Below the pieces are notes generated by a model. The model was not told the origin of the DNA. It worked only from the letters and a program-made list of their open reading frames with translations, and did not search any database. A DNA stretch of 64,000 nucleotides, taken from the IMG/VR virus record IMGVR_UViG_3300013099_000019; one strand, 5' to 3'. This document shows positions 31,555 through 50,974 of this stretch, one piece after another. This stretch comes from a virus. Lineage: Duplodnaviria > Heunggongvirae > Uroviricota > Caudoviricetes. The translations under genes were made by a program, and so were the position numbers. Within the stretch, counting starts at the first letter, position 1. Every line of letters starts with the position of its first letter.

Positions 31555-33303
31555 ATGTGTGGAATTGTAGGAATATTTCCGTTTAATAATTTACAAGATA
31601 AACAAGAACAAGCAAGAAAAGAAGCTGCTTTATTTTTATTTACTGAGCTTTTACAGACTACCAGTGCCAGAGGAGAAGATGCTACAGGTGTAACTACATT
31701 ATTTGAAAATGGGGATTACATGATTCAAAAAATGGGTATCTCTTCTCCTAAATTTATTAGCCGTTTTGGAAATAAGGCAAGTGACTTTGAAGGCTATACA
31801 AGTTTATGTTTAAAAAATGAAAAACGTATAAAAGCTTTGATAGGTCATTGTAGAAAAAGCTCGGTTGGTAATACTTATGATAATGAAAATAACCATCCAA
31901 TTAAAGCAGGAGAAATTGTAGGTATCCATAATGGTACACTTAAAAATCATAATAAAATCTTTAAAAATTTAGAATGTGAAAGAGATGGTGTAGTAGATAG
32001 TGAAGCTATTTTTAGACTGATACAGCATTTCACTAATGATTGTAAAGAACCTCTTACACTTAATATTCTTGAAGAAACTGTACGTCGTTTGGATGGTTCT
32101 TACAGTTGTTTAACTTATAATGCTAATATTCCATATCAAATTGGTATTTTTAGAGATGCAAGACCTATGGAATTTGCTTTAATTAAAGGTTTAAACCTGT
32201 TAGTTGTAGCTTCAGAAAAGAAATTTATTGATAAAGCATTATATGATTACAATAAGTATGCTAAATTATATAAAACAAGTTTTAAAATGATTAAAGCTGC
32301 TGATGTGTCAAATGCTTCTTTTCTTAATAATTATGTGGGTATTATAGATCTTACCCAAAAAATTAATAAAGATACAATTATAAATGATTTAATAATTAAA
32401 AAAGATGTTTTTAAAACTGAAAAAATCTGGAAAAGTACTGATGTATATGATTATTATAATAGACGCAAACAAGTAAAAAATATTAATACAAAAAGTACTA
32501 ATGTAACCACTACTAAAACTACTGGTGTTACCGAAAAAAAGTCGGGTTTGACCTCCACTAGTTTTGCGGAGGGAGATACTACAAAACAAAGTGGTATTGA
32601 AGGAAAAATATTCTGTAAAGAGCTTAATAAGTATATTGATCCTGAATCTGTAGAGTATACTTCAAAAATAGGTTGTGTAGAAATTGCTAATACAGGTAAA
32701 AAAGTATTAAGAATTGAAGAAAATCCTATTATTGACGCTGAATTTATGAAAGTAGCTGATGTGACTCCTCCAAAGATTACTACTAAAGAAGTTGATTTAA
32801 ATGTAGATACAGATATAATTGAGGGTTCAAAAAATTCTAATGACTCTTTATTAAAATATAAAAGTAACGAAGATTTAGCAGAAGATATTGAAGCGAATGA
32901 TGTTAAATCCGTAGAAGCACTTCCAGCTTTCGCTCTAGCAAATAGGATAAGAAAACATGCTTATGAAGCTGCTTTTATAGACGGCGCAACTTTTTATAAA
33001 AAATTAGATGTTAATACTAAATTGGATAAACTGCAAAAAATCCTTAAGTTTTCTAAAAAAATTATAAGAATTTTAGCTTTAAACACTGAATTACGTTCTA
33101 TAAACAATAATAATGATCAATCTAAAAAGTATTGTATGGAAGAGTGTGTAAGAGAAGAAGATACTAAAAAAGAATTAACTACAGAAGATTTAAATAAACT
33201 GGTTTCTACAGGGGATAAAACTGATTGTAAATCTTTAATACTTTTAGAAAAAGCAATAAAAGAGGTTAATGATGGAAAGGCACATACTGCTGGTAAAATC
33301 TAA
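31555..33303 (+). CDS. class-II (Ntn) glutamine amidotransferase domain protein with long low-complexity C-terminal region
   Basis: N-terminal MCGIVGI has the Cys nucleophile at position 2, as in PurF/GlmS/AsnB, followed by ...GHCRKSSVG...HNG. The C-terminal half is Lys/Thr/Asp-rich. Confidence 0.65.
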   Translation: MCGIVGIFPFNNLQDKQEQARKEAALFLFTELLQTTSARGEDATGVTTLFENGDYMIQKMGISSPKFISRFGNKASDFEGYTSLCLKNEKRIKALIGHCRKSSVGNTYDNENNHPIKAGEIVGIHNGTLKNHNKIFKNLECERDGVVDSEAIFRLIQHFTNDCKEPLTLNILEETVRRLDGSYSCLTYNANIPYQIGIFRDARPMEFALIKGLNLLVVASEKKFIDKALYDYNKYAKLYKTSFKMIKAADVSNASFLNNYVGIIDLTQKINKDTIINDLIIKKDVFKTEKIWKSTDVYDYYNRRKQVKNINTKSTNVTTTKTTGVTEKKSGLTSTSFAEGDTTKQSGIEGKIFCKELNKYIDPESVEYTSKIGCVEIANTGKKVLRIEENPIIDAEFMKVADVTPPKITTKEVDLNVDTDIIEGSKNSNDSLLKYKSNEDLAEDIEANDVKSVEALPAFALANRIRKHAYEAAFIDGATFYKKLDVNTKLDKLQKILKFSKKIIRILALNTELRSINNNNDQSKKYCMEECVREEDTKKELTTEDLNKLVSTGDKTDCKSLILLEKAIKEVNDGKAHTAGKI

Positions 33304-33307
33304 TAGT

Positions 33308-34579
33308 ATGGATAATAATAAGAAGGAGGGTAGACAAGAAAATACCCTTCTTCGTGCAGCAAATACTACTAGAGATTACTTAAAACTAGACGCTGATGTT
33401 GTAAAAAATATTCATAGTTCAAAAAATGAATATTCTGATGACTTGTATCCTTTTAAAGCTTATGCTAGAGATATTAAAAGAGTAAAAGAACTACAAGAAG
33501 CAGGTATAATTAAAGAAAAAGATTTAAATAAAGTATGCTTCGTAACAACTAGTACTTTTAATAAATTTACAAAACAGCCTGAAAAACAATTTATTACTGC
33601 AATTTTAGATAAAAATTTTGATAAATTACTTATAGGAACAGACCCAGAATTACTTTTAATGCATAATAACGAAGTAGTTCATGCAAGTAATATACCTAAT
33701 TTCTCAAAACTTTCAAAATTCGGTAGTGACGGTGCCATGGCAGAATTACGCCCTGATCCAGCATTTACATCTAAAGGCCTTGTAGAAAATATACGTAAAT
33801 TATTAACAGATAATGAATTAACAGCTAGCATTAAAAAATATGATTGGTTATCTGCATGTTATTTTGAAAATGCTAATAGAGATTTTCCTGTAGGAACTCA
33901 TTTACATTTTGACAATCCTACAAAAATAAAAAATATTGATATGATGCAAAGAAAACGTTTATTTGCAGTAACCAATAAAATTATTGACGAACTACTTACA
34001 GTACCTATGATACGTTTAGATGGCCTTTCTGGACATAATAGAAGAGCTAAATGTAAAATGAGTCAGGTGGGCGGTTTTGGAAATAACTACGGTGTCGGTT
34101 ATGGATTTTTTGGAGAGTGGCGTGTCTGTGAAGGAAGATTAGAACACAGAAGTTTATCTGGATTAGTAATTTCTGATCCAAAAATTTGTGAGGCTGTGTT
34201 CGGTGTTGGACAAGCTATTGTTGAAGCAGTATACAAAGAAGCCATCAATAACGATTTAAACTCAGAATTTATTTTGCCCAAAAATTTTGATTCTAACACT
34301 ATATATTCAAAACTTTTTAAAGACTGGCAAAAAATTCCGCTAGCAAAGACTTTTAATTGTACAAAAACAACTAATTTTATGCGTAATATTATGGATAAAA
34401 GTTCCAGAGTAGATATTAGTGTTGAGTACATAAAAAGATGGTTAAAAAATATTAGAAAATTACCTACTTACGGAAAATATGAACACAGTGTAGAGTTTTT
34501 AGGAGAATTGTTATCTAAAAATTCAAAATCACTTGATAAATTAGATAAAAACATTAAACATAATTGGGGAATAATATGA
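33308..34579 (+). CDS. GCS2 / glutamine-synthetase-like amidoligase, paralog 4
   Basis: IGTDPELLLMH and VGTHLHFDNP. Start set at the ATG just after the upstream stop. Confidence 0.5.
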   Translation: MDNNKKEGRQENTLLRAANTTRDYLKLDADVVKNIHSSKNEYSDDLYPFKAYARDIKRVKELQEAGIIKEKDLNKVCFVTTSTFNKFTKQPEKQFITAILDKNFDKLLIGTDPELLLMHNNEVVHASNIPNFSKLSKFGSDGAMAELRPDPAFTSKGLVENIRKLLTDNELTASIKKYDWLSACYFENANRDFPVGTHLHFDNPTKIKNIDMMQRKRLFAVTNKIIDELLTVPMIRLDGLSGHNRRAKCKMSQVGGFGNNYGVGYGFFGEWRVCEGRLEHRSLSGLVISDPKICEAVFGVGQAIVEAVYKEAINNDLNSEFILPKNFDSNTIYSKLFKDWQKIPLAKTFNCTKTTNFMRNIMDKSSRVDISVEYIKRWLKNIRKLPTYGKYEHSVEFLGELLSKNSKSLDKLDKNIKHNWGII

Positions 34580-35625
34580 AAAAGACTTATGTATGGTATT
34601 CAGCAGCGACAGATGTTACAGGTAAAAAACTTGCAGAAGAGTTAGGGTGTGAGAGTGGTACTGCACGCCCTGCCGCAAAATTTGATAAAGTTATTTGTTG
34701 GGGAACAAAAACTAAAGATAATGTAAATTTGGCTCCAAAAAAAGTATTTAATCATCCAAATAATATTCAAGTAAACCGTAACAAATTAAGCGCTCTTGTA
34801 AAAATGAAAGATGTAAACTGTAACGTAGCTAGATTTTCTAAAAATGTAGCAGACCTTGAATTTCCTATGATTGCTCGTACAAAATATCATCAGGGCGGTG
34901 CAGGTTTCTGGCTTTGTTTAAATAAAACTCAAGTAACTCAAGCTGCAAAAGAAGGTGCCCAATATTATCAGAAATATATTGATATAAAAGATGAATATCG
35001 ACTACATGTAGTTGATGGTAAAGTAATTTATGCAGTAAAGAAGGTTGCACGTAAAAATCTTAAAGATGCTTTTGTAAATCATTATACAAATTACATTATT
35101 AATTATGCAGGTAAAAATAATATTAATGTAGATGCTGATTCACTTGCTTTTATTCTTAAAAGACTTGCACGTAAAATGGCTACAGGTGTTGATATGATCG
35201 TAAGATCTAACACTCGTGGTTGGAAATTTAGCAAAATTAATATTGAAAATCTTCCTGCTAACTTAAAGGCACAAGCACTTAAAGCTGTAGAAGCTTTAGG
35301 TCTTGACTATGCGGCAGTAGATTGCTGTATTACTGATGCTGATGATGCGTATATTATTGAATGCAATACTGGGCCTGGTCTTGAAGGAAGTTCTTTTGAT
35401 GCTTGGGTAAAAGCACTTATTAAGTTGATAAAACCTAAGGCTGATGCTAAAAAAGTTGTTTTGGCAAAGAAGAAGGTAGTTGGTGTTGGTAAGGAAATAG
35501 CAAAAGATGTTGTTAAAGGAAAACTTAAAGCCAAAGCTAAAATGATGGAAGCTATGGTAGATGCGGCTGATAACGCTCAACTTGAAGCATTAGAAAATCT
35601 TTGGAAAAAAATGGGTATGGCTTAA
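34576..35625 (+). CDS. ATP-grasp ligase (RimK/glutathione-synthetase-like)
   Basis: EYRLHVVDGKVIYAVKK (central ATP-grasp strand), then YAAVDCCITDADDAYIIECNTGPGLEG (the E-x-N Mg/ATP motif), then a Lys/Ala-rich tail. Confidence 0.6.
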   Translation: MKKTYVWYSAATDVTGKKLAEELGCESGTARPAAKFDKVICWGTKTKDNVNLAPKKVFNHPNNIQVNRNKLSALVKMKDVNCNVARFSKNVADLEFPMIARTKYHQGGAGFWLCLNKTQVTQAAKEGAQYYQKYIDIKDEYRLHVVDGKVIYAVKKVARKNLKDAFVNHYTNYIINYAGKNNINVDADSLAFILKRLARKMATGVDMIVRSNTRGWKFSKINIENLPANLKAQALKAVEALGLDYAAVDCCITDADDAYIIECNTGPGLEGSSFDAWVKALIKLIKPKADAKKVVLAKKKVVGVGKEIAKDVVKGKLKAKAKMMEAMVDAADNAQLEALENLWKKMGMA

Positions 35626-37794: not shown

Positions 37795-38140
37795 GGTGTT
37801 AACTCCTAAAATAGGGTACTTTGCCAAATATAAAGGTAAATGGCATGAAATTTTAAGATTTGATGAAGATTTAGGTACTCAATTACTTAATTTTAAATGG
37901 GTTTGTGCTTCTAAATTTACAGCTATAAAAAAAGCAAAACCTTACGCTTGTCCTGTTTGTGGAAGTCAAATAAAAGTAGACAGAATAGATGACGGAGAAA
38001 CTCATTACATTGTAGATAAAACTACTGGGTTACTCGTAGAAGAGGATAATTGTTCAGACGGATATACAAAAGTATTTTGCGGCAAAGAAGAATCACATGA
38101 ACTTGGAGACCTGGAAGATGGTATTCTTGATCAAATTTAA
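37781..38140 (+). CDS. zinc-ribbon protein
   Basis: CPVCGSQ plus a second Cys pair; 119 aa. Confidence 0.45.
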   Translation: MRGIKVLTPKIGYFAKYKGKWHEILRFDEDLGTQLLNFKWVCASKFTAIKKAKPYACPVCGSQIKVDRIDDGETHYIVDKTTGLLVEEDNCSDGYTKVFCGKEESHELGDLEDGILDQI

Positions 38141-38293
38141 TTAAATATATAGACATGTATTTTTACCATCAAAACTAATTACTAAGTACCGTCATAGATG
38201 AGGAAAAGAATTAGTTAAAAACATAAACATACGTTATAGTCAAGGGTAGTACGCTAACTTTATTTATACAAAAAATCCTATTTTTTAATACCT

Positions 38294-38302
38294 TGGTATA
38301 AT
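38294..38302 (+). promoter_or_regulatory. putative extended -10 promoter element (tggtataat) inside the 386-nt non-coding region
   Basis: TGnTATAAT-like element; no clear -35 box found. Confidence 0.3.
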
Positions 38303-38526
38303 AGGTTGGTAACCTCTCCATCATTGAAAAGAGGGCATATTATTTCTGACAACTATCAGGTAATATGTTAATTTGGTTTTGTTTAGTAGTTAATGTTTAT
38401 CCTAAAAATAGAAACTATTTATAAATAAAGATAGGGAATAATGTTCGAGTCATTATTGTTTATAGGTAAAAAACAGACCCAGTGTGGGGAGGGAAATATC
38501 CCTGCATACCAAAGGAGATTTAAAAA

Positions 38527-38898
38527 ATGCGTTATATTTATTTCGGAAAAGAGAATATTGGAAAAAAACACGGTGTTATCTGTGTCGGTTATAAATTTGA
38601 AGGAGAGCGTGGGCTTAAACTAAGTTTTTGTTTTTGTAGCCCTTTAGACATCTTTTCTAAAAAGAAAGCTCATGCAATTATTGAAGGTCGTATGGAAAAA
38701 GGAAACTCCATTACTGTAAATACTGAGGGTCCCGAAAAACTTAAGTACGAAGAGATTGCTAATATTGCAAAAGATGTTCTTAATGATGCTATGCCTTATG
38801 GTGTACCAAATGTTCGAGCCTATGTAGAAAGTGTTGAGCACAAGAGCACACCGGAAGTTGGTAATGTTAAACTACCCTGGTGGTTTACAGGTATTTAA
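38527..38898 (+). CDS. hypothetical protein
   Basis: AAGGAG RBS 8 nt upstream; 123 aa. Confidence 0.5.
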   Translation: MRYIYFGKENIGKKHGVICVGYKFEGERGLKLSFCFCSPLDIFSKKKAHAIIEGRMEKGNSITVNTEGPEKLKYEEIANIAKDVLNDAMPYGVPNVRAYVESVEHKSTPEVGNVKLPWWFTGI

Positions 38899-38905
38899 TG
38901 TTTAA

Positions 38906-38988
38906 GCAGGCGTGTTGGAATTGGTATACATCGGTGCCTTAGAAGCATCGGCCTATTAGGATTGGGAGTTCGACTCTCCCCGCCTGCA
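38906..38988 (+). tRNA. tRNA-Leu(UAG), type II with long variable arm
   Basis: Acceptor gcaggcg/cgcctgc (7 bp). Anticodon stem ggtgc/gcatc with loop cttagaa (anticodon TAG). Variable arm contains the cct-att-agg hairpin. T arm gggag-ttcgact-ctccc. The D arm is weak. Confidence 0.65.
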
Positions 38989-39011
38989 AAAATTTAATAA
39001 AGGAGTAAAAA

Positions 39012-39416
39012 ATGATTTATGATAAAATAAAAAAAGATATGGTTCAGGCTATGAAGGATCATAATAAGAGTCTTCAAAGTCTTTTAAAAGTTTTAGTATC
39101 AGATATTAATCGTGATCCTAATAAAGATTATTCTGATGTAAAAGCTATTAAAGTAATTAAACAAACTTCTGGAATGCTTTATAGTAATTATGACGCTTTA
39201 GGTATTAGTCAAGATTTAATTGATGCTGAGTATCTTGAACGTGTTTATCTTCCAGCTCAAATTTCAGATGAAGCTATAATTACATTTTTAGATACACTTG
39301 ATTTTTCAAAATTTAAAAATAAAATGCAAGCTATCAGTAAAGTAAAGGCTAATTTTCCTGATGGATCTATTGATGGAGAGGTAGTTAAAAATATTGTACT
39401 AAAGTATGAGTGTTAA
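39012..39416 (+). CDS. hypothetical protein
   Basis: 134-aa ORF with an AGGAG RBS. Confidence 0.45.
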   Translation: MIYDKIKKDMVQAMKDHNKSLQSLLKVLVSDINRDPNKDYSDVKAIKVIKQTSGMLYSNYDALGISQDLIDAEYLERVYLPAQISDEAIITFLDTLDFSKFKNKMQAISKVKANFPDGSIDGEVVKNIVLKYEC

Positions 39417-39985
39417 AAATGGAAGATTTTAAAAAAGAAACTACATTTACGCATTTAGAAATTTGTGAAAAATTAGGTAAAGCTTTAGTTGATCTTAATG
39501 CTGATCAAATAGCTTCTTTATACAATAAAATTTTTATGTCTTATAGTGATTTTGAGTATAAAGGTGATGATAAATATGTTTTAACTGAATATGCTCCTAT
39601 GAAAAAAGGTGAAGGAGACCACATAGTTGTTGGGGCTTATTATGAATTACCTAATGGAAAAATTGCTTATATCTACGGGTATCATGGGTTAAAAAGAGTT
39701 GTATCTTACTACTTTGATGATAATCAAGGTGGAAGAAGTATAAGCTTTGAAAAAGTAAAAAGCTGGAAAAAAAGAAATAAGTTGAAGGATTTTCCTAATG
39801 CTAAAGACCCAAAATTACCTTATGTTTTTGATTTGTTCTGGGATATTAAACATTATTCAGAACTTAAAAATTTAATAGCTGAACACAGTGAAGATTGGTT
39901 AGAACATGAAGGTGTTATTGAAGAAATTGTTAAAAATAAATTGTCAAATAAATTTTTAAGTAATAAAATTATTGACAATTTGTAA
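39410..39985 (+). CDS. hypothetical protein
   Basis: 191-aa ORF overlapping the upstream stop. Confidence 0.45.
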   Translation: MLKMEDFKKETTFTHLEICEKLGKALVDLNADQIASLYNKIFMSYSDFEYKGDDKYVLTEYAPMKKGEGDHIVVGAYYELPNGKIAYIYGYHGLKRVVSYYFDDNQGGRSISFEKVKSWKKRNKLKDFPNAKDPKLPYVFDLFWDIKHYSELKNLIAEHSEDWLEHEGVIEEIVKNKLSNKFLSNKIIDNL

Positions 39986-40006
39986 AAAAAGTAGTATAAT
40001 AAAGTT

Positions 40007-40084
40007 TAGAGATGGTGTATAGTACAGTTACTTCAACTTGTAAATTGACCTGTAAAACTGTACTAGTTTGTTCCTCTCTATTTT
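40007..40084 (+). ncRNA. conserved extended hairpin element, copy 1 (terminator-like; candidate small ncRNA / Y-RNA-like)
   Basis: tagagatgg-tgtat-agtacagt-tacttca...actgtact-agtttgtt-cctctcta-tttt. Two helices (tagagaNgg/cctctcta and agtacagt/actgtact) flank an internal loop. The element is near-identical to the copy at 44317. Confidence 0.6.
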
Positions 40085-40119
40085 ATATAATAAATTAACT
40101 AGGATAAAAGGTAATTAAG

Positions 40120-40314
40120 ATGGCTAAAAAACGAACTGGACCAAAACCTATTACAACTGCTAACATTAAAGATAAATCTTTTATTAAGAAAAAGAAAAAG
40201 ATTAATACTTATACTGTAAAAGAACTTATAGCTTTTGTAGCTTTTCTTAGCAGTAGTTGTCCTAATTCAAAAGTACATATTTCGGCAAAGAAGAGATTAG
40301 CTGAATTGGTGTAG
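40120..40314 (+). CDS. hypothetical basic protein
   Basis: 64-aa ORF. Confidence 0.35.
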   Translation: MAKKRTGPKPITTANIKDKSFIKKKKKINTYTVKELIAFVAFLSSSCPNSKVHISAKKRLAELV

Positions 40315-40316
40315 TA

Positions 40317-40505
40317 ATGATTGTAAAAATTATAGAAACAAACAAAGTGGAATTACATTTTAAATCTTCATGTGAAAATTGTGGAGGTATTACTGCTGGT
40401 GTTGATAATGTAAGTATAACTGATTTAATTGATACTGGTGTACCTATATGTCAAGAATGCGGTGATGATCTTGAACTTAAAGACTTATGTAAAATTAATA
40501 TTTAA
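40317..40505 (+). CDS. zinc-ribbon protein
   Basis: CENCGG...CQECGDD; 62 aa. Confidence 0.35.
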
Positions 40506-40511
40506 AATTAA

Positions 40512-40588
40512 GCGCCCATAGCTCAGCTGGATAGAGCAACGGCCTTCTAAGCCGTAGGTCGCAGGTTCGAATCCTGCTGGGCGTACCA
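40512..40588 (+). tRNA. tRNA-Arg(UCU) with encoded CCA
   Basis: Cloverleaf gcgccca / gctcagctggatagagc / acggc-cttctaa-gccgt / gcagg-ttcgaat-cctgc / tgggcgt-a-cca. Anticodon is TCT. Confidence 0.8.
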
Positions 40589-40742
40589 GTAGTATCATAG
40601 TCATAAAGTATTTTTTAATGAAAATTAATACTTGTAAAAGGCACTTGTAGTGCATGAACAGTAACTACATTAGTGAAAGTAGTACGTATTTCATAGTGAA
40701 ATTTAAAATTTGGCTTAACTCAACTAAATTTTATACTACTTA

Positions 40743-40812
40743 GAATATATAGCTCAATTGGAAGAGTGATAGGCTTTCCCCTATGACGTAGGTTCAATTC
40801 CTACTATATTCT
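40743..40812 (+). tRNA. tRNA-like gene with non-canonical anticodon arm (possibly Glu-UUC-like)
   Basis: Acceptor gaatata/tatattc (7 bp), D arm gctc..gagt, T arm gtagg-ttcaatt-cctac. The anticodon stem atagg/cctat only pairs if the loop is 6 nt (ctttcc). The variable region is 3 nt. Confidence 0.45.
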
Positions 40813-40822
40813 GAACAAACAT

Positions 40823-41151
40823 GGGCGTGTGGCGGAACGGCAGACGCATGGGAGGACCAGAAAGTCAGTCCCCTTTTATTAGAAATAGTAATCGAAAATT
40901 GGATGAATTCAAGGAAGGCTAAACCTAACTATTAGGTATGCTAACCCTGAGCGAAGCCTTAAGTACACTTAAGGAACGTGCAGAGACTACCTGAGAGATA
41001 TAGTTCTCTTAATAACAGGCAAGAGCGTCCGATACCTTAACAAATAAAGTTGCAGGTAATGAGATAGTCCATGCTACTATGAAAATAGTAGACACACAGC
41101 TTAAAATCCCTTGATCTTATGATCGTGAGAGTTCGAATCTCTCCATGCCCA
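40823..41151 (+). tRNA. tRNA-Leu(UAA)-like gene interrupted by a ~246-nt group-I-like intron
   Basis: 5' part gggcgtg-tg-gcg-gaacggcaga-cgc-a-tggga (Leu-type D arm). 3' part cttaaaa-tccct-[tgatcttatgatcgt]-gagag-ttcgaat-ctctc-catgccc-a. Acceptor gggcgtg/catgccc is fully paired. Confidence 0.6.
40854..41099 (+). other. group-I-like intron (IA-type R and S elements) within tRNA-Leu
   Basis: R-like cagagactac and S-like gagatagtcc match T4-type group IA consensus (UCAGAGACUACA / AAGAUAUAGUCC). A P9-like hairpin ctacta..tagtag is present. The intron ends with G (41099) directly before the anticodon loop cttaaaa. Confidence 0.5.
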
Positions 41152-41174
41152 AATTATTTTAAGTAGGAGTTTAT

Positions 41175-41360
41175 GTGAGAAGATTAAAATACTTAGAAAC
41201 ATCCACAATGAAAGTTGTTCTTTGTGATTGTCATCATACAACAGGTTTTGATAATTGTTTATTAACTAAAATAAAAAGCTTGCCTAAATTTGCTAATTGT
41301 GGTAGAGTACTATATATTAAAAGGTACTTTAAAAAATTAATGGTTTTGTGTAAAGATTGA
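41175..41360 (+). CDS. hypothetical small Cys/His-containing protein
   Basis: 61-aa ORF between tRNA genes. Confidence 0.3.
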   Translation: MRRLKYLETSTMKVVLCDCHHTTGFDNCLLTKIKSLPKFANCGRVLYIKRYFKKLMVLCKD

Positions 41361-41473
41361 CATAAGTGACTACATGACCCTCTCCATGTATGTCTGTATA
41401 GGAGCTGGCTGTCCCTACAAATTCGGTCTACGAATAACAGTTTTATTTTAAAATTTAATTAAAGGTAATTATT

Positions 41474-41590
41474 ATGACACCAGAATTTTTAAATGAAATT
41501 TCTTGGTATATAACCAGTGTTACATTTGCATTAGGTACATTTGTTATAGGTTTTGCTTTTGGTTACTGGGCAAAAAAACAAGAATATTAA
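41474..41590 (+). CDS. small single-pass membrane peptide (38 aa)
   Basis: I translated MTPEFLNEISWYITSVTFALGTFVIGFAFGYWAKKQEY. Confidence 0.3.
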   Translation: MTPEFLNEISWYITSVTFALGTFVIGFAFGYWAKKQEY

Positions 41591-41597
41591 GTATTAT

Positions 41598-41676
41598 AGG
41601 GTGATATTCTAACGGTAAGGAGCCAGGTTTTGATCCTGGTGCGAAAGCTCTGCAGGTTCGAATCCTGCTCACCCTG
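41598..41676 (+). tRNA. tRNA-Gln(UUG)-like with unusually long (12-nt) variable region
   Basis: Acceptor agggtga/tcaccct. Anticodon stem ccagg/cctgg with loop ttttgat (anticodon TTG). T arm gcagg-ttcgaat-cctgc. Confidence 0.55.
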
Positions 41677-41686
41677 AATAAAAAAT

Positions 41687-42003
41687 TTCTAATCTGGAAG
41701 GTTGGCTTAGAAGCAGCAATCCTTTAAAGAGTAGAGCAAGTACGGATCGCAAACGATGAAGCTACGAGTTGCCCAAAACACTTGTAGTGGAGATGAAGTT
41801 GGGCCAGAGTAATAAGTAAATGACGTCATACTTATAAGAGGTGATGCCTGTCTATACTACGACAAGACAACATAAAAGTATATAGATGGTAGATGCAGTC
41901 CTGCTCCTGATGAGGCGAACGAGTTGTACATGGTAAGTAGTGAAGTACCCCAGAAATGGTAAGGCGGCACTCTCTTTTGGCGTAATAGCACACCAGATTA
42001 GAA
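41687..42003 (+). ncRNA. candidate ~315-nt structured non-coding RNA in tRNA cluster
   Basis: No ORF on either strand. GC-enriched relative to flanks. An 11-bp terminal inverted repeat (ttctaatctgg / ccagattagaa) would close the domain. It lies between two tRNA genes. Confidence 0.45.
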
Positions 42004-42023
42004 TTTATTTTAAGGAGAATTAA

Positions 42024-42572
42024 ATGTTAATAACAGCATATATTGAGGAAGACTTTTTAAGTTTAGATTCAAAAAAATATGTAAATAAAAAAGAAACTGT
42101 GGTACAAGTATTACCTACAAAAAAAATGTTTGACCGGGTACAACAATTACAAATAGCTGTTAAAAATGTAAATGCAATGTACATAGATGATTTTAATTAT
42201 GCTCCTAAATGGGAAGAATTATATTTAGAAGACTCTAAAATTATCCCTGACATAGCAAGAATTGTTGTAGATAAAAGTACTATACATTGGACTTGTATTG
42301 TAAAACATACTAATATTATTGTAAGAACAGAAGTGGTAGATATTAATAAATTTTTTTCTAAATTTATTAATAAAGATGTAAAAAAGATTACTGGTACAAA
42401 TAATACTACGCCTTATGAAAAACTTAAAAGTATAGCTAATTTTGCTGTGGACGACTTAGATATTGAAGGTTTACAAGAATTATCTTATACAAGTATTCTT
42501 AATTTTCTTGATGACTGTACTAATGAGCAAATTGAACAGCAAATTGAATTTTATGGATATCCAACAAATTAA
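42024..42572 (+). CDS. hypothetical protein
   Basis: 182-aa ORF with a GGAG RBS. Confidence 0.5.
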   Translation: MLITAYIEEDFLSLDSKKYVNKKETVVQVLPTKKMFDRVQQLQIAVKNVNAMYIDDFNYAPKWEELYLEDSKIIPDIARIVVDKSTIHWTCIVKHTNIIVRTEVVDINKFFSKFINKDVKKITGTNNTTPYEKLKSIANFAVDDLDIEGLQELSYTSILNFLDDCTNEQIEQQIEFYGYPTN

Positions 42573-42582
42573 GGAGTTTTTT

Positions 42583-42804
42583 ATGTGTGATACTTGTAAA
42601 GAATTATTTAAATTATTAGAAGAATGTATAGAGTCATCTTGTGATGAGTGTAATTATCATGAGTACTCTACAGTTGCAATATCTGATTACTGTACAAATG
42701 ATGCCAGTCCTAAAAGTGCTGGATGGATGAGCGGTTCTTATGGGTGTAGTCATCATTCAAAGATAAAACAATTAAAAGAAAAATACTTGACATTAATTGA
42801 GTAG
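42583..42804 (+). CDS. Cys-rich small protein
   Basis: MCDTCKELFK...CDECNYHEY...CTND; start follows an AAGGAG RBS. Confidence 0.45.
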   Translation: MCDTCKELFKLLEECIESSCDECNYHEYSTVAISDYCTNDASPKSAGWMSGSYGCSHHSKIKQLKEKYLTLIE

Positions 42805-42806
42805 TG

Positions 42807-42815
42807 TGTTATAAT
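42807..42815 (+). promoter_or_regulatory. extended -10 promoter element (tgttataat) immediately upstream of tRNA-like gene
   Basis: TGnTATAAT lies 8 nt before the 5' end of the tRNA-like gene at 42823. Confidence 0.4.
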
Positions 42816-42822
42816 ACAAATA

Positions 42823-42953
42823 TTGGAAGTAGCTCAGTGGTAGAGCCTCAGCCCCCAAAAAATCTCTTTTCGCTTATTCCCTTAACTGTGGTGTAGAATA
42901 GAGATACTTCATACTCAAGCTGATGGTCGTTGGTTCAATCCCAACCTTCCAAT
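42823..42953 (+). ncRNA. tRNA-like gene with 66-nt conserved structured insert replacing/expanding the anticodon loop (insert family member 1)
   Basis: Acceptor ttggaag/cttccaa (7/7). D arm gctc-agtggta-gagc. Anticodon stem tcagc/gctga encloses 66 nt. T arm gttgg-ttcaatc-ccaac. The insert carries the TGCTTATTCC and GGTGTAGAATAGAGATACTTCA blocks. Confidence 0.55.
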
Positions 42954-42960
42954 TAAAATG

Positions 42961-43134
42961 TTAGAGATGGCGAAACTGGTATACGCGCTGGTAAAAAAAG
43001 CCTTTATTTGCTTATTCCCTTTATATGTAACCGTCTAGGATGGTTGCTATTTCAGTGGTGTAGAATAAAGATACTTCAAATGGGAACCGGTTAGGTTAAT
43101 CCTAGTGTAGGTTCGAGTCCTACTCTCTAGCCCA
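42961..43134 (+). ncRNA. tRNA-like gene (type II, CCA encoded) with 93-nt conserved insert (insert family member 2)
   Basis: Acceptor ttagaga/tctctag (t-g at 1:72). D arm gcg-aaactggtata-cgc. Stem ctggt/accgg encloses the insert. Variable hairpin tagg-ttaat-ccta. T arm gtagg-ttcgagt-cctac, then c-cca. The insert contains TGCTTATTCC and GGTGTAGAATAAAGATACTTCA. Confidence 0.5.
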
Positions 43135-43330
43135 TAAAAATTATTTATCGTTAGTAAGGAGCGAAACTAATGTACTTGTTGTCAAACCCTGGCAAGTATA
43201 CCGAACATATCCAATGTTTTTAAACTGGAGATATGGTACTTGAAGAATCTAGCGGTTCAAAACACCCAAGAGTAAAGGGATGTGAGGAGTGTTACGATAA
43301 ATATCTTAGTATTACTAAAAGGAAAAATAT

Positions 43331-43468
43331 ATGCCTGATACAAAAGACTTTTACTGTGTATTTAGTATTATGGGTTTAGTTTTTATAGCTACTACTGTAT
43401 GTGCTTGGGAAATTATAAAATTTGTATTTAAATTTATTGTAGCACATGTGTCAATTATATTTATGTAA
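43331..43468 (+). CDS. small hydrophobic peptide (45 aa)
   Basis: I translated MPDTKDFYCVFSIMGLVFIATTVCAWEIIKFVFKFIVAHVSIIFM. Confidence 0.25.
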   Translation: MPDTKDFYCVFSIMGLVFIATTVCAWEIIKFVFKFIVAHVSIIFM

Positions 43469-43542
43469 AGGAGTACAAATGAAACTATATCAAGAGTATG
43501 ATACCAAATAAGGAAATTTAAAAACTTATTAAGAGGTCATAC

Positions 43543-44115
43543 ATGAAAAATCAATTTTTTGTTTATACTAAAGAAGGAATTTATAAATCTTTTGTACATT
43601 ATTATCATTTACTTAATTTTTTAAGACTACGTAATTGGGGCAAATTTGGACATTCTTTTAAAGATAAACGTAGGGTCACAATAAAAGTTAAAGATACTTG
43701 GTCCTATAAGGGTAATGTATTTTTAATGGGTCCTACAAAACTTATAAAAATAAAATATATAGCTAAAGATATAAACGGTAAAGTACTTAATTGTAAAAAA
43801 CTTGAAGATGATGCTTATTACGCTGAAAATTTTAAACCTGATTATTCTAAAATAAGATATATAGGTTGGAAAGCAAGACATCAAAATTATCCTGGCTTTA
43901 GAAAAGGTCCTGTACCTTATACAGGTGGTTGGGGTAGATATTGTTGGTTAAGACATATTAAAACTACTCAAGAAAGAAGACTTAATTGTACTTATAAAAA
44001 GTATGTAAGAGCTAAAAGAAAAAATTTGCCAAGTTATTGGGACGATATAAAACGTTCAGACACAAATCGTACACAATCTTGGAAAAGAAGTAAAAAATGT
44101 AAACAATGGATGTAA
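43543..44115 (+). CDS. hypothetical basic (Lys/Arg/Trp-rich) protein
   Basis: 190-aa ORF with high pI, possibly nucleic-acid binding. Confidence 0.45.
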   Translation: MKNQFFVYTKEGIYKSFVHYYHLLNFLRLRNWGKFGHSFKDKRRVTIKVKDTWSYKGNVFLMGPTKLIKIKYIAKDINGKVLNCKKLEDDAYYAENFKPDYSKIRYIGWKARHQNYPGFRKGPVPYTGGWGRYCWLRHIKTTQERRLNCTYKKYVRAKRKNLPSYWDDIKRSDTNRTQSWKRSKKCKQWM

Positions 44116-44127
44116 AAAATAAATTAT

Positions 44128-44304
44128 GGTATATCTTGAATTAGAAAAAGTACTTAATACTTTGGTTAAAAATGCAACTAAAGAAAGTAATTTTTATCAA
44201 ACTGCTGACGCATTTAAAAAAGTTTTTGAAGATAGAACTACTACAGCAACTGACCAAGTAAATAAAATTATAAAAATTATTAAAAATAGAACTATAAGTA
44301 ACTA
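44128..44304 (+). CDS. hypothetical small protein (58 aa)
   Basis: I translated MVYLELEKVLNTLVKNATKE.... It fits the inter-ORF gap. Confidence 0.3.
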
Positions 44305-44316
44305 AATTTGTATGTT

Positions 44317-44391
44317 TAGAGATGGTGTATAGTACAGTTACTTCACTTTTAATGAAACTAACACTGTACTAGTTTGTTCCTCTCTATTTTT
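44317..44391 (+). ncRNA. conserved extended hairpin element, copy 2 (terminator-like; candidate Y-RNA-like), adjacent to tRNA-Met and the Ro60-like gene
   Basis: Same 5' arm tagagatggtgtatagtacagttacttca and 3' arm actgtactagtttgttcctctcta-ttttt as copy 1. The apical region differs between copies. Confidence 0.6.
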
Positions 44392-44393
44392 AA

Positions 44394-44468
44394 GGGCATT
44401 TAGCTTAGCTGGCCAAAAGCCATCGGCTCATAACCGATCGATCCGGGGTTCGACTCCCTGAATGCCCA
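44394..44468 (+). tRNA. tRNA-Met/Ile2 (CAU anticodon), elongator-type
   Basis: Acceptor gggcatt/aatgccc with a paired 1:72. Anticodon stem atcgg/ccgat with loop ctcataa (CAT). T loop ttcgact. Confidence 0.65.
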
Positions 44469-44512
44469 AGTATATTTATATAATTAATAATACCTTGTAA
44501 GGAGGAATTACA

Positions 44513-45889
44513 ATGGCGAGTTTAAACAAAAAACCAGTAGTAAAATTTACACATGAAGGTGGTAAAGCAAAACATATCAATGCTGCACTTGAACTTGAAA
44601 GGACAGTTATGGCTTGTATGCTTTGGGAAAGATCTTTTTATGAGTCTGGAGAATCTATTGTAGATAGAATTCAACAACTTGTAGCTAAAGTAGCCCCTAA
44701 AAAAGTAGCTGAGCTGGCAATAAAAGCACGTTATGATATGAAACTTCGTCATGTACCTTTATTACTTGTAAGTATTATGGTAAAATTACCAGCTTACAGG
44801 CCTTATGTTTCTGATACTTTATTTCAAATTATCAATAGACCTGATGAAATGGCAGAATTTTTAGCTATGTATTGGAAAGATGGAAAATGTCCTGTAGCTA
44901 ATTCTGTTAAAAGAGGTTTGGCCTCTTGTTTTCTTAAATTTAATGAGTATCAATTTTCTAAATGGAATAGACCTAATGCTATTAAACTAAGAGATGTAAT
45001 GTTTATTTGTCATCCTAAACCTGTAAATAAAAAGCAAGAAGATATGTTCAAAAGAATTGCTGATGATACTCTTGAAGTTCCTGATACTTGGGAAGTAGCA
45101 CTTAGTTCAGGAGCAGATAAGCAAAAAACATGGACAAGATTACTAGAAGAGAAAAAGTTGGGCGGTATGGCTCTTATCAGAAATCTTCGTAACATGGAGA
45201 ATGTAGGAGTAGATAAGCAATTAGTTAAAAAAAGTATTACAGAAATAAAATCTAATTTTATTTTACCCTTTAGATACATTGCTGCAGCAAAATATGCTCC
45301 TAAATTTGAACCAGAATTAGAGTATGCTATGTTTAATTCTTTAGTTACACACGATAAATTAAAAGGAAATACAGTTCTTTTGATTGATGTTTCTGGTTCT
45401 ATGTGGCAATCTCTTTCAAGTAAATCAGATATGTTACGAATTGATACTGCTTGTGGTTTAGCTATGTTACTTAGAGAAATTTGTGAAGATATAGATATTT
45501 ATACTTTCTCATTAGAATTAAAAAGTGTAGCTCCAAGAAGAGGTTTTGCACTTAGGGATGCGATTATAAATTCTCAAGATCATAGTGGAACATATTTAGG
45601 CCATGCAGTAAAAAATATTTATGCAAAGAAGGGTAGTAGTGACAGGTTTTCTGGTTATTACAGGGGACACCTTACGTTTAAAGGCCAAGGACTAAGTCCA
45701 GAACGTCTTATTGTTATAACTGATGAACAGTCCGCAGATAAAGTACCTAATCCAAAAGGTAAAGGTTATATGATGAATGTAGCCTCTTATCAAAATGGTG
45801 TAGGGTATGGCGCTTGGACACATATTGATGGTTTTAGTGAGTCATGTGTGAAATGGTTACAAGCTATGGAAAATTGTGCATTTTTATAA
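44513..45889 (+). CDS. Ro60-like (TROVE domain + vWA domain) RNA-binding protein
   Basis: The N-terminal ~300 aa resemble the Ro/TROVE fold (ERSFYESGESIVDRIQQLV...KLRHVPLLLVSIM). The C-terminus has the vWA MIDAS motif VLLIDVSGSMW. A TROVE+vWA pair is the Ro60/Rsr architecture. AGGAGG RBS is present. Confidence 0.55.
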   Translation: MASLNKKPVVKFTHEGGKAKHINAALELERTVMACMLWERSFYESGESIVDRIQQLVAKVAPKKVAELAIKARYDMKLRHVPLLLVSIMVKLPAYRPYVSDTLFQIINRPDEMAEFLAMYWKDGKCPVANSVKRGLASCFLKFNEYQFSKWNRPNAIKLRDVMFICHPKPVNKKQEDMFKRIADDTLEVPDTWEVALSSGADKQKTWTRLLEEKKLGGMALIRNLRNMENVGVDKQLVKKSITEIKSNFILPFRYIAAAKYAPKFEPELEYAMFNSLVTHDKLKGNTVLLIDVSGSMWQSLSSKSDMLRIDTACGLAMLLREICEDIDIYTFSLELKSVAPRRGFALRDAIINSQDHSGTYLGHAVKNIYAKKGSSDRFSGYYRGHLTFKGQGLSPERLIVITDEQSADKVPNPKGKGYMMNVASYQNGVGYGAWTHIDGFSESCVKWLQAMENCAFL

Positions 45890-46074
45890 AAATTAATTTA
45901 ATTAATAATTTATTGTAAGTTCTGTAAGCCGAAGATTACGGAGCTTAAAGTCTTTATTAGTATACTGTATATTTTTTACAACTAGACATGGGACTAATAC
46001 AAATTATAATACTAAGTATTTAATTATTATTAAACCATAAATGTTTGTGTTTATATACATTATATGAAGGCGAA

Positions 46075-46100
46075 AGGTTGAATGGGAAGGGGTGGGCTAG
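46075..46100 (+). repeat. G-rich motif AGGTTGAATGGGAAGGGGTGGGCTAG, copy 1
   Basis: Repeated at 46566 with 2 substitutions; lies upstream of the strong promoter. Confidence 0.6.
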
Positions 46101-46133
46101 TTATTAATTAAATAAATAAAAGTAAAAAAAAGA

Positions 46134-46162
46134 TTGACAAAATATTTTTAATGTGTTATAAT
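46134..46162 (+). promoter_or_regulatory. strong sigma70-type promoter (TTGACA-17-TATAAT with TGn)
   Basis: ttgaca(46134-39), a 17-nt spacer, then tataat(46157-62) preceded by tgt. The RBS AAGGAGG and the GTG start of the ORF at 46190 follow. Confidence 0.7.
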
Positions 46163-46189
46163 ATGTATATTAAAAATTAAGGAGGTTAC

Positions 46190-46462
46190 GTGTTAGATTT
46201 GTGTGATATGTTTGAAAGTAATGAAATTAAAGCAGTACAAGGAGTTGAAGATAGAAATCCTTTAGACTTTGCTGAAGCAGTAGGTTTAGCAGAAGCTATG
46301 ATGGACACGAGAGATGTAAATTTTGAAGATGTTGAAACTTTGTTTGATAATGATGAAGAAACACATCAAAAAGCAGAATTAGTAAGTTTAAATACAAGAC
46401 ATAATAAACAAAACATACCTCCTTTTGAACGTATGGTAATGCGCAAATGTGGATTACTTTAA
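46190..46462 (+). CDS. small acidic protein (GTG start)
   Basis: 90-aa Asp/Glu-rich ORF 6 nt after AAGGAGG. A candidate early gene expressed from the host-RNAP promoter. Confidence 0.45.
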   Translation: MLDLCDMFESNEIKAVQGVEDRNPLDFAEAVGLAEAMMDTRDVNFEDVETLFDNDEETHQKAELVSLNTRHNKQNIPPFERMVMRKCGLL

Positions 46463-46565
46463 TTTAAAAGGAAGTGTAATACTAACTATTTTAAGAGTAT
46501 GCTTTCGCGCTGCGATGACTAAAATATTTAGAATGTAAGAATGAAAGATCTTACAAGGTTGAATG

Positions 46566-46592
46566 GGTAGGGGTGGGCATAGTTTATTATGG
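46566..46592 (+). repeat. G-rich motif AGGTTGAATGGGTAGGGGTGGGCATAG, copy 2
   Basis: Near-identical to the copy at 46075; followed by tggtataac (an extended -10-like element). Confidence 0.6.
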
Positions 46593-46616
46593 TATAACAT
46601 TAAAGAAGAGATTAAA

Positions 46617-46826
46617 ATGCCAATTTATGAATATGAATGTTTAACATGTGGTACTATTTTTGAAGCACAATCTTCAATTAAAAATAGAAACACTAGAGAA
46701 TATGGCTGTACAAAATGTAAAGGCATAGGAAAACGTATTATTTCTAAATCTAGTTTTATTTTAAAAGGTTCAGGTTGGGAAAAAGACGGTTATTCGGGCA
46801 TTTCAAATAGAAGTAAATCAAAATAG
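46617..46826 (+). CDS. FmdB-family zinc-ribbon protein
   Basis: MPIYEYECLTCGTIFE...CTKCKG is the FmdB-type CxxC...CxxC N-terminus. Start chosen after the RBS rather than at 46563. Confidence 0.55.
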   Translation: MPIYEYECLTCGTIFEAQSSIKNRNTREYGCTKCKGIGKRIISKSSFILKGSGWEKDGYSGISNRSKSK

Positions 46827-50849: not shown

Positions 50850-50974
50850 TGCGCTGTGATGTAATTGGTAACATGGAAAATCTCACTTTTTGCTTATTCC
50901 TCTTTTAGATGGTGTAAAAAAGTGTTACTTCATATCATAAATGGCCTCTCCAGGTTCGAGTCCTGGCGGCGCAA
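50850..50974 (+). ncRNA. tRNA-like gene with ~70-nt conserved insert (insert family member 3); anticodon stem not identifiable
   Basis: Acceptor tgcgctg/cggcgca. D arm atgt-aattggta-acat. T arm ccagg-ttcgagt-cctgg. The internal region carries TGCTTATTCC and GGTGTAAAAAAGTGTTACTTCA, with helix cacttttt/aaaaagtg. Confidence 0.5.

Follow-up and report, generated by a model that had tools for sequence, protein, structure and literature searches.

The window analysed here is a 64,000-nucleotide stretch of DNA from a tailed virus (IMG/VR record IMGVR_UViG_3300013099_000019). It is AT-rich (about 29% GC) and phage-like, and nearly all of its genes lie on the plus strand. Two hairpin elements, designated Y1 and Y2, three tRNA-shaped genes, T1 to T3, and a gene for a TROVE-domain protein are the subject of this analysis (Table 1). 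A near-identity search of positions 38000-46000 against 50,697 phage records returned tRNA-Arg matches only, from which we conclude that a close cultured relative is absent. Scanning IMG/VR with the exact two-arm pattern of the hairpins gave 0 matches, so the sequence of Y1 and Y2 is unique and the module alone is common to others. Two identical copies of the window DNA in public assemblies yielded no microdiversity.

Table 1. Features of the window and of related loci. Coordinates are those of the window unless a locus (L) is named; R1 is a covariance model described in the text, and its E-values rest on a shortened calibration and are rough.
Feature	Coordinates	Strand	Remarks
Promoter of sigma-70 type, perfect, 5' of Y1	39972..40000	+	12/12 consensus (TTGACA, 17 nt, TATAAT)
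Y1, predicted hairpin-type Y RNA	40007..40084	+	R1 match 40007-40080, full length, 60.1 bits, E 3.4e-14
Y1 lower stem	40007-40012/40075-40080	+	
Y1 bulged U	40013	+	
Y1 GG / CC	40014-15 / 40073-74	+	
Y1 internal loop UGUA / GUUUGUU	40016-19 / 40066-72	+	
Y1 upper stem	40020-28/40057-65	+	
Y1 UUACUUCA element	40028-35	+	between upper stem and apical hairpin
Y1 apical hairpin		+	UCAA-CUUGUAAA-UUGA
Y1 U-run	40081-84	+	
Promoter of sigma-70 type, perfect, directly 5' of T1	42787..42815	+	extended -10 TG
T1, tRNA-shaped RNA, Y module in anticodon region	42822..42954	+	Rfam tRNA 50.2 bits with insertion
T1 module, first half	strand a 42863-71; GCUUAUUCC 42872-80	+	closing loop follows
T1 module, second half	GGUGUA 42890-95; strand b 42896-904; ACUUCA 42906-11	+	
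T2, class-II (tRNA-Leu-like) tRNA-shaped RNA with Y module	42961..43134	+	
T2 module	strand a 43001-09; GCUUAUUCC 43010-18; GGUGUA 43057-62; strand b 43063-71	+	
Y2, second predicted hairpin-type Y RNA	44317..44391	+	R1 match 44317-44386, full length, 67.1 bits, E 4e-16
Y2 tip hairpin		+	UUCA-CUUUUAA-UGAA; 7-nt loop, anticodon-loop-like
Y2 U-run	44387-91	+	
tRNA-Met(CAU)	44394..44468	+	starts 3 nt after Y2 U-run
Ro60/Rsr orthologue, 458 aa	44513..45889	+	TROVE ring and vWA domain; Pfam, PHROGs and PDB profile matches
T3, solitary tRNA-shaped RNA with Y module	50850..50974	+	
T3 module	strand a 50883-91; GCUUAUUCC 50892-900; GGUGUA 50911-16; strand b 50917-24	+	
T-type gene in IMG/VR	L057:5542-5669		
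T-type gene in IMG/VR	L060:13625-13751		
T-type gene in IMG/VR	L062:4088-4214		
T-type gene in IMG/VR	L080:1843-1969		
T-type genes in GTDB-genome contigs	L122, L160, L186		

The 5' arm of the hairpins, GGTGTATAGTACAGTTACTTCA, occurs at exactly two sites in the window (40014 and 44324), as does the 3' arm, ACTGTACTAGTTTGTTCCTCTCTA (40057 and 44363); 0 matches to the arms are expected from shuffled sequence. Y1 and Y2 are identical from the GTT before the stem to the TTTT after it, the tips excepted, which are unlike in sequence and in length (21 vs 17 nt). The first-pass annotation had described a two-copy element of this kind, at 40007 and 44317, with two helices separated by an internal loop; the copies are real and the predicted minimum-free-energy fold, common to both, agrees with that layout. 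Outermost is a 6-bp lower stem (UAGAGA/UCUCUA), followed by a single bulged U, two GG/CC pairs, an asymmetric internal loop (UGUA / GUUUGUU), a predicted 9-bp upper stem (UAGUACAGU/ACUGUACUA) and a small apical hairpin, with a U-run 3' of the lower stem. Folding-energy z-scores of -2.8 and -2.0 for the two copies are only mildly unusual, so folding energy alone cannot settle the matter and the real support comes from comparative data.

The ORF at 44513-45889 starts 123 nt downstream of Y2, beyond tRNA-Met, while the end of Y1 lies 4.4 kb upstream of it, with all three on the plus strand. Its product has a Pfam TROVE match at 1.9e-18 and a match to phrog_850, 'RNA-binding protein', at 6.8e-39; among solved structures, the nearest relative is Thermus phage phiLo Ro60 (9KOP/9L5Y; 6.6e-22 with the single sequence). 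A family profile of 17 members matched 9KOP at 1.1e-46, the RO60 entry 9NEN at 1.2e-9 and 1YVP (60-kDa SS-A/Ro) at 1.6e-7. The MIDAS motif of the vWA domain, DxSxS (D292, S294, S296), is invariant across the family. The TROVE domain, the MIDAS and the matches to Ro60 structures together identify the product as a Ro60/Rsr orthologue. In the systems studied so far, the small Y RNAs to which Ro60 binds have their genes next to that of Ro60 (PMC4201824, PMC12135203). The product of 44513-45889 is the predicted protein partner of Y1 and Y2.

Using this protein as the query, we scanned IMG/VR and obtained 51 contigs with relatives at 41-63% amino-acid identity. The 330 nt upstream of each relative TROVE gene hold one to six tandem copies of the module. 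A covariance model, R1, was built from an alignment (A1) of 30 short hairpins taken from foreign TROVE-linked loci only and containing no window sequence; in the window it matched Y1 and Y2, on the plus strand only. Across the 51 loci, R1 gave 147 matches at E <= 1e-3 by the same rough calibration, and 147 of 147 lie on the strand of the TROVE gene. At least one match is present in 48 of the 51, and the remaining three loci have less than 140 nt of upstream sequence. The first-pass annotation had held that absence of the motif from related genomes would count against the element; what a search of such genomes returned is the module, beside the TROVE gene and on one strand only. As a negative control, 46 loci (384 kb in all) were searched with R1 at E <= 0.01: the 42 without a TROVE gene, which make up most of the 384 kb, gave no match, and matches were confined to three loci that do carry one.

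Among the relatives, the module takes two shapes, either a short hairpin, as in Y1 and Y2, or a classic YrlA, in which the tip gives way to a hairpin, a T arm, an acceptor stem closed by a loop, and a D arm. Classic YrlA with the same stem module is found at L047:9123-9253, at L001:1974-2109 and in many other relatives, and the relatives' elements are mostly without a U-run. Apparent pairings of a 3' strand with a following 5' strand in other loci, such as L037, were rejected as mispairing of adjacent tandem copies.

The family consensus runs, in its 5' half, from the lower stem through a bulged U, GG and Y-G-W-A to the upper stem, (U)UACUUC and a variable tip, and, in its 3' half, from the 3' strand of the upper stem through G-Y-U-U-R-U-U and CC back to the lower stem. 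The first pair of the upper stem is usually G-C, and the spacing from GGYGWA to ACUUC is constant at 10 nt in the relatives and in the window. Variants of the 5'-strand motif (GGCGAAG, GGCGUAG, GGUGAAG and GGUGUAG) occupy the same position and structure. The window motif GGUGUAU, with U-A where G-C is usual after the motif, is the far end of this series; the same form also occurs beside the TROVE gene of another phage (L052, a 269-kb contig). In bacterial Y RNAs, Chen et al. (2014; PMC4201824) placed the likely Rsr-binding motif, GNCGAAN0-1G, close to the 5' end and described a conserved YUAY further along the RNA. Judged by sequence, the UUAC of UUACUUC is the apparent counterpart of the published YUAY, and GGUGUA is an apparent variant of the Rsr-binding GNCGAA. 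Measured against GNCGAAN0-1G, GGUGUAU shows two or three departures (U in place of C and of A, and U in place of G, the last with a compensating A opposite); the strict bacterial form and the vertebrate GGUCCGA are absent from the window copies, which carry the family-level variant. The N of the motif covaries with its 3' partner (GG/CC, GC/GC, GU/AC).

In the A1 alignment, 93.7% of cells are paired, a figure that is partly circular because the seeds were chosen by a pairing filter, and changes on both sides occur in 16 of 17 pairs. A larger alignment, A4, comprises 113 distinct R1 matches and has 92.2% of cells paired and double changes in 17 of 17 pairs; since it was fitted to the model, the pair-type counts and the slid-partner controls are the less affected measures. 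Its covariation score is 0.847, compared with 0.213 for shuffled alignments and at most 0.153 with slid partners.

From R1 membership, covariation, TROVE linkage and the motif variant, we conclude that the hairpins are very probably short, hairpin or 'YrlB-like', phage-encoded Y RNAs, and we regard Y1 and Y2 with high confidence as genes for Y RNAs partnered with the adjacent Ro60. Having neither a D arm nor a T arm, they fall outside YrlA, which is recognised by a permuted tRNA-like domain. That they are odd tRNAs was considered and rejected, as ARAGORN made no call and no cloverleaf could be drawn. An Rfam search of 39900-44600 returned no Y RNA or other family at the elements, even at E <= 10. 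A gathering-threshold Rfam scan of 12 related loci with clear YrlA-type RNAs also gave tRNA matches only, and the library thus seems not to cover this clade. The first-pass annotation did not name a Y RNA and overlooked the TROVE gene 123 nt from the second copy; two of its suggestions nevertheless appear to have pointed in the right direction, a small stable RNA, in that the elements look to be a structured-RNA family tightly linked to Ro60/TROVE genes, and a protein recognition site, in that the bulged helix seems to match the published Ro60/Rsr-binding region.

If the linkage to Ro60 were a coincidence of co-location in the tRNA cluster, the elements might be cis sites for some other phage factor, such as an RNase, the phage RNA polymerase or a tRNA-processing enzyme. 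The five copies of the module in or near the tRNA region would suit such a role, in a phage with genes for a CCA-adding enzyme and for an RNA polymerase of unusual type. The linkage, however, is to the TROVE gene itself, across contigs with little else in common, and the motif falls on the region of bacterial Y RNAs for which Rsr binding has been defined by experiment. We consider this the least probable of the three alternatives weighed in this work.

The placement of the hairpins bears on how such Y RNAs would be made. The perfect promoter before Y1 ends 7 nt upstream of it, with a predicted start at about 40007-40008, that is, at the first bases of Y1. Only three promoters with 12 of 12 consensus positions occur in 38500-51500, one before Y1, one before T1 and one before ORF 46190. 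With this promoter and its own U-run, Y1 has the look of a self-contained transcription unit. Y2, by contrast, has no convincing promoter; it is squeezed between ORF 44126-44305 and tRNA-Met and may therefore be cut from a longer transcript, in the manner of YrlA and YrlB of M. smegmatis, which are processed out of a single precursor (PMC4201824). RNase P cutting at the 5' end of tRNA-Met could free the 3' end of Y2, and the U-run may help to terminate transcription of Y1 and Y2.

Both copies start 12-22 nt past stop codons (ORFs 39410-39985 and 44126-44305; 12 nt in the case of Y2) and are followed by 4-5 U, an architecture of stem and U-run that would also be that of two long intrinsic terminators or attenuators ending the upstream ORFs, with no role as free RNA. 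A scan for consensus terminators, however, reports neither copy. The stem adjoining the U-run is AU-rich and the hairpin is 74 nt long with an internal loop; homologues in the relatives mostly have no U-run and form tandem arrays of 2-6 upstream of the TROVE gene. A perfect promoter aimed straight into Y1 would be senseless for a pure terminator, and the conserved internal-loop sequence, the fixed 10-nt spacing and the covarying stems are not terminator features. Termination as the sole function is therefore very unlikely. The proposal of the first-pass annotation that the element is a promoter or terminator for the phage-encoded RNA polymerase is likewise not supported, given the host-type sigma-70 promoter at Y1, the usual lack of a U-run in the family, and the internal loop and covarying stems.

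The module recurs in the three tRNA-shaped genes. The pattern GGTGTA-N6-20-ACTTCA has 5 matches in the window against 0.1 expected, and the five copies have a common frame, GGUGUA-N10-ACUUCA with G(C/U)UU(A/G)UUCC on the opposite strand. The bases between these fixed blocks vary among the five copies, yet pairing with the partner strand is kept. The first-pass annotation had reported the 5'-arm motif within three tRNA inserts. The three tRNA-like genes of Table 1 are exactly those that carry the element and the structural module is indeed in common, but the 22-nt arm motif itself is not, having no third copy in the window at up to 3 mismatches.

Each of T1, T2 and T3 closes its own 7-bp acceptor stem, and in each the module is turned inside out: the 3' strand of the upper stem, GCUUAUUCC and a short closing loop come first, followed by U, GGUGUA, the 5' strand of the upper stem and UACUUCA. 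The upper stems of the three are unlike in sequence but complementary within each gene (GAAUAGAGA/UCUCUUUUC, AAUAAAG/CUUUAUU and AAAAAGUG/CACUUUUU). ARAGORN reads T1 as tRNA-Trp with a 59-nt 'intron'. The closing segment of T2 has 38 nt between CC and GG with a hairpin of its own inside, and its 3' end encodes a discriminator C and CCA. In T3, the module is followed on the 3' side by a hairpin (UCAU-AUCAUAA-AUGG), then CCUCU, then the T arm. Since the same module lies, loop-closed, inside tRNA-like genes, T1-T3 are a circular permutation of classic YrlA. They are not YrlA topologically: the D and T arms stand in tRNA order, the acceptor stem is open and the Ro60-binding stem is capped. By analogy, they are predicted to work like YrlA.

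The tandem arrangement of T1 and T2 also gives the YrlA order (strand b, T arm, spacer, D arm, strand a), and R1 finds a weak YrlA-like match across the junction (42883-43024, 28.6 bits). Read as a permuted YrlA, however, the junction leaves the lower stem and the would-be acceptor stem unpaired, and each tRNA closes its own acceptor, so this is probably not a functional fold and was rejected. In the model of Sim and Wolin, YrlA arose from a dimeric tRNA transcript, as relayed by Wang et al. (2018; bioRxiv 10.1101/312249). The T1-T2 gene order is the one that this model requires, and it may be a living counterpart of it.

Five copies in one genome, three of them in tRNA anticodon regions, the usual place for tRNA introns, could be taken for five landings of a mobile or intron-like insertion (MITE-like, or a small tRNA intron), of which the stand-alone copies would be excised or solo forms; the introns of 59 and 88 nt that ARAGORN reports and the inverted ends of the stand-alone copies (TAGAGA...TCTCTA) could be read in the same way. 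The upper stems of the five copies, however, differ by compensatory changes and are not one copied sequence, and in 48 of 51 distant contigs the module is found in synteny with a TROVE gene. Target-site duplication is not evident at Y1 or Y2, and removal of the insert leaves no canonical anticodon loop in T2 or T3. Group I introns are also much longer than the inserts, for which Rfam has no matching ribozyme or intron family. A group I intron in T1-T3 was rejected specifically, as the inserts measure about 50-90 nt and the core needs about 200 nt or more; the group I family RF00028 matches only 40819-41091, in tRNA-Leu(UAA). Pfam and PHROGs scans turned up no RtcB or RNA ligase in the window ORFs that they covered. 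To an insertion we give even less credence than to a terminator, and, taken jointly, the terminator, the mobile or intron-like element and the other-factor site are unlikely to account for these elements; Y RNAs partnered with Ro60 are the preferred reading.

Using pattern scans followed by a pairing filter, we found the architecture of T1-T3, here called T-type, in seven further places, four in IMG/VR and three in GTDB-genome contigs. For six of these seven, a TROVE gene is present in the fetched locus and ordinary Y hairpins adjoin; the exception is L080, whose 7.4-kb locus lacks a TROVE gene. The genome scan gave 102 raw pattern matches, four of which pass a 7-of-9 pairing filter. Three pair at 8 of 9, and it is precisely these that have a TROVE gene; the remaining one, L165, with 7 of 9 pairings and no TROVE gene, was treated as noise. 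In all ten T-type genes, the Ro60-binding stem is closed by a stem of 2-3 bp and a loop, and, on a reading of the flanks, N73 and CCA directly follow the acceptor stem in 6 of the 10. A limited search of the literature reached no description of the T-type form. We consider the proposal that T1-T3 and their seven relatives are an undescribed, non-permuted class of tRNA-like Y RNA to be evenly balanced. Such RNAs may have as their scaffold a complete tRNA with an open 7-bp acceptor stem, often an encoded N73-CCA and the normal order of D and T arms, and may carry in the anticodon region a Ro60-docking arm, after which there is usually a small hairpin whose 7-nt loop is anticodon-like. RNase P and the CCA-adding enzyme could process them while they are tethered to Ro60, and they could perhaps even be charged with an amino acid in that state. 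The b7a-tRNA, an authentic-looking tRNA that is sometimes found beside Rsr, offers a parallel, as summarised in bioRxiv 10.1101/312249. A band-7 protein is also encoded in the window (55291-56619), and no homologue of it or of the CCA enzyme was found in the other loci carrying T-type genes.

Among known bacterial systems, the hairpins most resemble S. Typhimurium YrlB, M. smegmatis YrlB and D. radiodurans Yrn2 (PMC4201824): in each case a small RNA is encoded next to Ro60 on the same strand, forms a long hairpin from its paired 5' and 3' ends with a GNCGAA-type motif near the 5' end and a small tip loop, and shares its genome with a tRNA-like Y RNA. Unlike YrlB and Yrn2, the window RNAs have the motif GGUGUAU, are phage-encoded and come as two copies with the same stems and different tips; and unlike the single precursor of M. 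smegmatis, one window copy has its own consensus promoter and U-run. YrlA (PMC4201824; structure in Wang et al. 2018, bioRxiv 10.1101/312249) has a Ro60-binding stem, UUAC and D- and T-arm sequences that are also present in T1-T3. In YrlA, however, the T arm precedes the D arm, the acceptor is loop-closed with no free CCA and the two ends of the RNA lie in the Ro60-binding stem, whereas in the T-type the D arm comes before the T arm and the acceptor is open. A tRNA-like domain is missing altogether from Y1 and Y2. The permutation that relates T1-T3 to YrlA is of the same kind as that seen in circularly permuted tRNA genes (bioRxiv 10.1101/312249).

Phages with related systems have been reported. 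Sequences related to YrlA are known from 22 bacteriophages (Chen et al. 2014; PMC4201824), and in Listeria phage CKA15 abundant ncRNAs lie within 2 kb of an Rsr-like gene (PMC12282133). The available part of the phiLo report (PMC12135203; 9KOP, 9L5Y) describes a Ro60, the closest solved homologue of the window protein, that binds two Y-like RNAs, Yrl1 and Yrl2, encoded upstream of its gene. These share the stem-bulge-stem layout and a CGAA-type motif with Y1 and Y2, a likeness drawn from that description. Unlike the present system, phiLo belongs to a very different phage lineage, protein identity is low and no tRNA-embedded form is mentioned in that part of the report.

Metazoan Y RNAs (hY1, hY3, Xenopus Y3) share the overall design of Y1 and Y2. 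Their 5' and 3' ends pair in a lower stem, one pyrimidine bulges from the 5' strand, and a short helix, an asymmetric internal loop and an upper stem lead up to a variable effector loop; the 3' end carries a U-run. In hY1 and hY3 there is a GGUCCGA-like motif. Unlike these RNAs, the window copies show no detectable sequence homology and no match to Rfam Y_RNA, and their U-run is a bacterial terminator-like tail, whereas that of metazoan Y RNAs is a Pol III/La signal. Characterised Y RNAs are quoted at 80-130 nt; Y1 and Y2 are slightly shorter, at 74-80 nt.

By analogy with these systems, we propose the following scheme for the expression, Ro60 binding, effector and biological role of Y1 and Y2. 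For Y1, host RNA polymerase would start at the consensus promoter just before it and stop at the stem and U-run of Y1 itself, while Y2 would be part of a transcript leading into tRNA-Met and the Ro60 gene and would probably be released by processing. Pairing of the 5' and 3' ends would create the conserved helix with its bulge, which comprises the lower stem, the bulged U, GG/CC and the loop UGUA / GUUUGUU and is predicted to dock on the outer face of the Ro60 ring, as in Xenopus, Deinococcus, Salmonella and phage phiLo. The two unlike tips may each attract or keep out different partners, host PNPase being one example, and may thereby steer Ro60 during infection to RNAs that are structured or damaged, tRNA or rRNA for instance; gating of the Ro60 cavity and tethering of an exonuclease such as PNPase would be the corresponding activities. 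In T1-T3, the same docking module would replace or stand beside the anticodon arm, making them tRNA-like Y RNAs with a topology opposite to that of YrlA. RNA quality control, tRNA repair and counter-defence, as suggested for Bas63 gp130, are possible benefits to the phage.

Ro60 and Y RNAs are conserved from bacteria to humans, in whom Ro60 is an autoantigen of lupus and Sjogren's syndrome. Little is settled so far about what they do in bacteria and phages. In this phage a compact system combines a Ro60 gene, two probable hairpin Y RNAs and three tRNA-shaped RNAs, the five RNAs having one predicted docking arm in common, and the RNA and the Ro60 protein travel together across about 50 uncultivated phages. 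Y1 and Y2 very probably belong to a known kind, the phage Y RNAs, with a motif variant that would widen the accepted binding motif from GNCGAA to GGYGWA. Genes of this sort are currently annotated as terminators or as 'tRNAs with introns'. T1-T3 are probably a new topological variant of tRNA-like Y RNA, and a Ro60-binding module inside three tRNA-shaped genes is probably an arrangement not described before, as far as our limited literature search extends. If the tRNA-shaped form is truly undescribed, it bears on the origin of Y RNAs from tRNAs and on the purpose of the tRNA-like domain.

The predicted Ro60-docking arm (a GGUGUA-type motif, an upper stem and ACUUC) was placed in the anticodon region of ten tRNA-shaped genes, three in the window (T1 to T3) and seven on foreign contigs (see table). 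In these genes the acceptor stem is open, and N73 and CCA are encoded by six of the ten. Compared with YrlA, the known tRNA-like Y RNA in which the T arm precedes the D arm and the acceptor stem is closed by a loop, they are its circular permutation.

tRNA-shaped genes with the predicted Ro60-docking arm, and examples of the anticodon-like hairpin
Feature	Locus	Coordinates	Strand
tRNA-shaped gene T1	window	42822-42954	
tRNA-shaped gene T2	window	42961-43134	
tRNA-shaped gene T3	window	50850-50974	
tRNA-shaped gene	L057	5542-5669	
tRNA-shaped gene	L060	13625-13751	(-)
tRNA-shaped gene	L062	4088-4214	
tRNA-shaped gene	L080	1843-1969	(-)
tRNA-shaped gene	L122		
tRNA-shaped gene	L160		
tRNA-shaped gene	L186		
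Anticodon-like hairpin, Y2 tip	window	44345-44361	
Anticodon-like hairpin, T3	window	50929-50947	
Anticodon-like hairpin	L047	9145-9170	
Anticodon-like hairpin	L041	9832-9855	

A further fusion topology, with a distinct arrangement of the Ro60-binding stem and tRNA arms, was seen on a foreign contig (L035:2062-2195). Here the D arm, an anticodon-type arm and the T arm lie in natural order, all inside the predicted Ro60-binding stem, which has apparently replaced the acceptor stem; the Rfam tRNA match (2105-2166) spans model positions 6-65.

The hairpin directly 3' of ACUUC frequently carries a 7-nt loop of anticodon-loop shape (C/A-U-NNN-A-A), such as CUUUUAA, AUCAUAA, CUGCUAA, CUACGAA or CUCAUAA, the foreign examples tabulated being two among many. 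Loops of 7 nt were found in 44 of the 114 hairpins detectable among 131 motif instances examined. In YrlA-type copies xGGUC comes directly after this hairpin and the T arm after that, which puts the hairpin where an anticodon arm would stand. The anticodon-like loop may be a relic or a decoy.

At both of its ends T2 is very similar to the hairpin-type Y RNAs Y1 and Y2 in their lower stem and motif: the 5' end (42961-42975) is UUAGAGAUGGCGAA and the 3' end (43120-43134) has CUCUCUA, to be compared with UUUAGAGAUGGUGUA ... CCUCUCUA (40005-40019, 40073-40080). The Leu-type U8-G-G-C-G-A-A of T2 also constitutes a GNCGAA. These sequence likenesses hint that the tRNA acceptor/D-arm junction may have been the source of the Y lower stem.

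The other tRNA genes of the window include a tRNA-Leu(UAA) (40822-41152) with a group I intron of 246 nt in its anticodon loop (RF00028 in Rfam, 79.2 bits), and a tRNA-like gene (40742-40813; Rfam tRNA, 53.8 bits) to which ARAGORN assigned no anticodon because the anticodon loop has 6 nt. The variable region of tRNA-Gln(UUG) (41597-41677) is ~10 nt longer; directly after it lie 346 non-coding nt (41678-42023) of higher GC than their surroundings, with no Rfam match and an unremarkable folding energy (z = -0.9). Two copies of a G-rich 22-mer, GGTTGAATGGG(A/T)AGGGGTGGGC (46076-46097 and 46557-46578; 0 expected by chance), stand 480 nt apart in intergenic sequence on either side of ORF 46190-46462.

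Also encoded are a CCA-adding enzyme (8145-9494; PolyA_pol head plus HD) and a Band-7/SPFH protein (55291-56619); Band-7 has been tied in the literature to RtcB and to 'b7a-tRNA', the latter sometimes beside Rsr. Neither RtcB nor another RNA ligase turned up in the window ORFs scanned. Rpb2 domain 6 and Rpb1 domain 2 are each matched weakly by a 1094-aa ORF (21445-24729), which suggests an RNA polymerase of the multisubunit type, either fused or highly divergent. In its vicinity (15624-18910, 27485-35625) are several genes for phiEco32-like COOH-NH2 ligases, glutamine amidotransferases and ATP-grasp proteins.

As for the tRNA-shaped genes that carry the predicted docking arm, gene finders would be expected to annotate them as intron-containing tRNAs.
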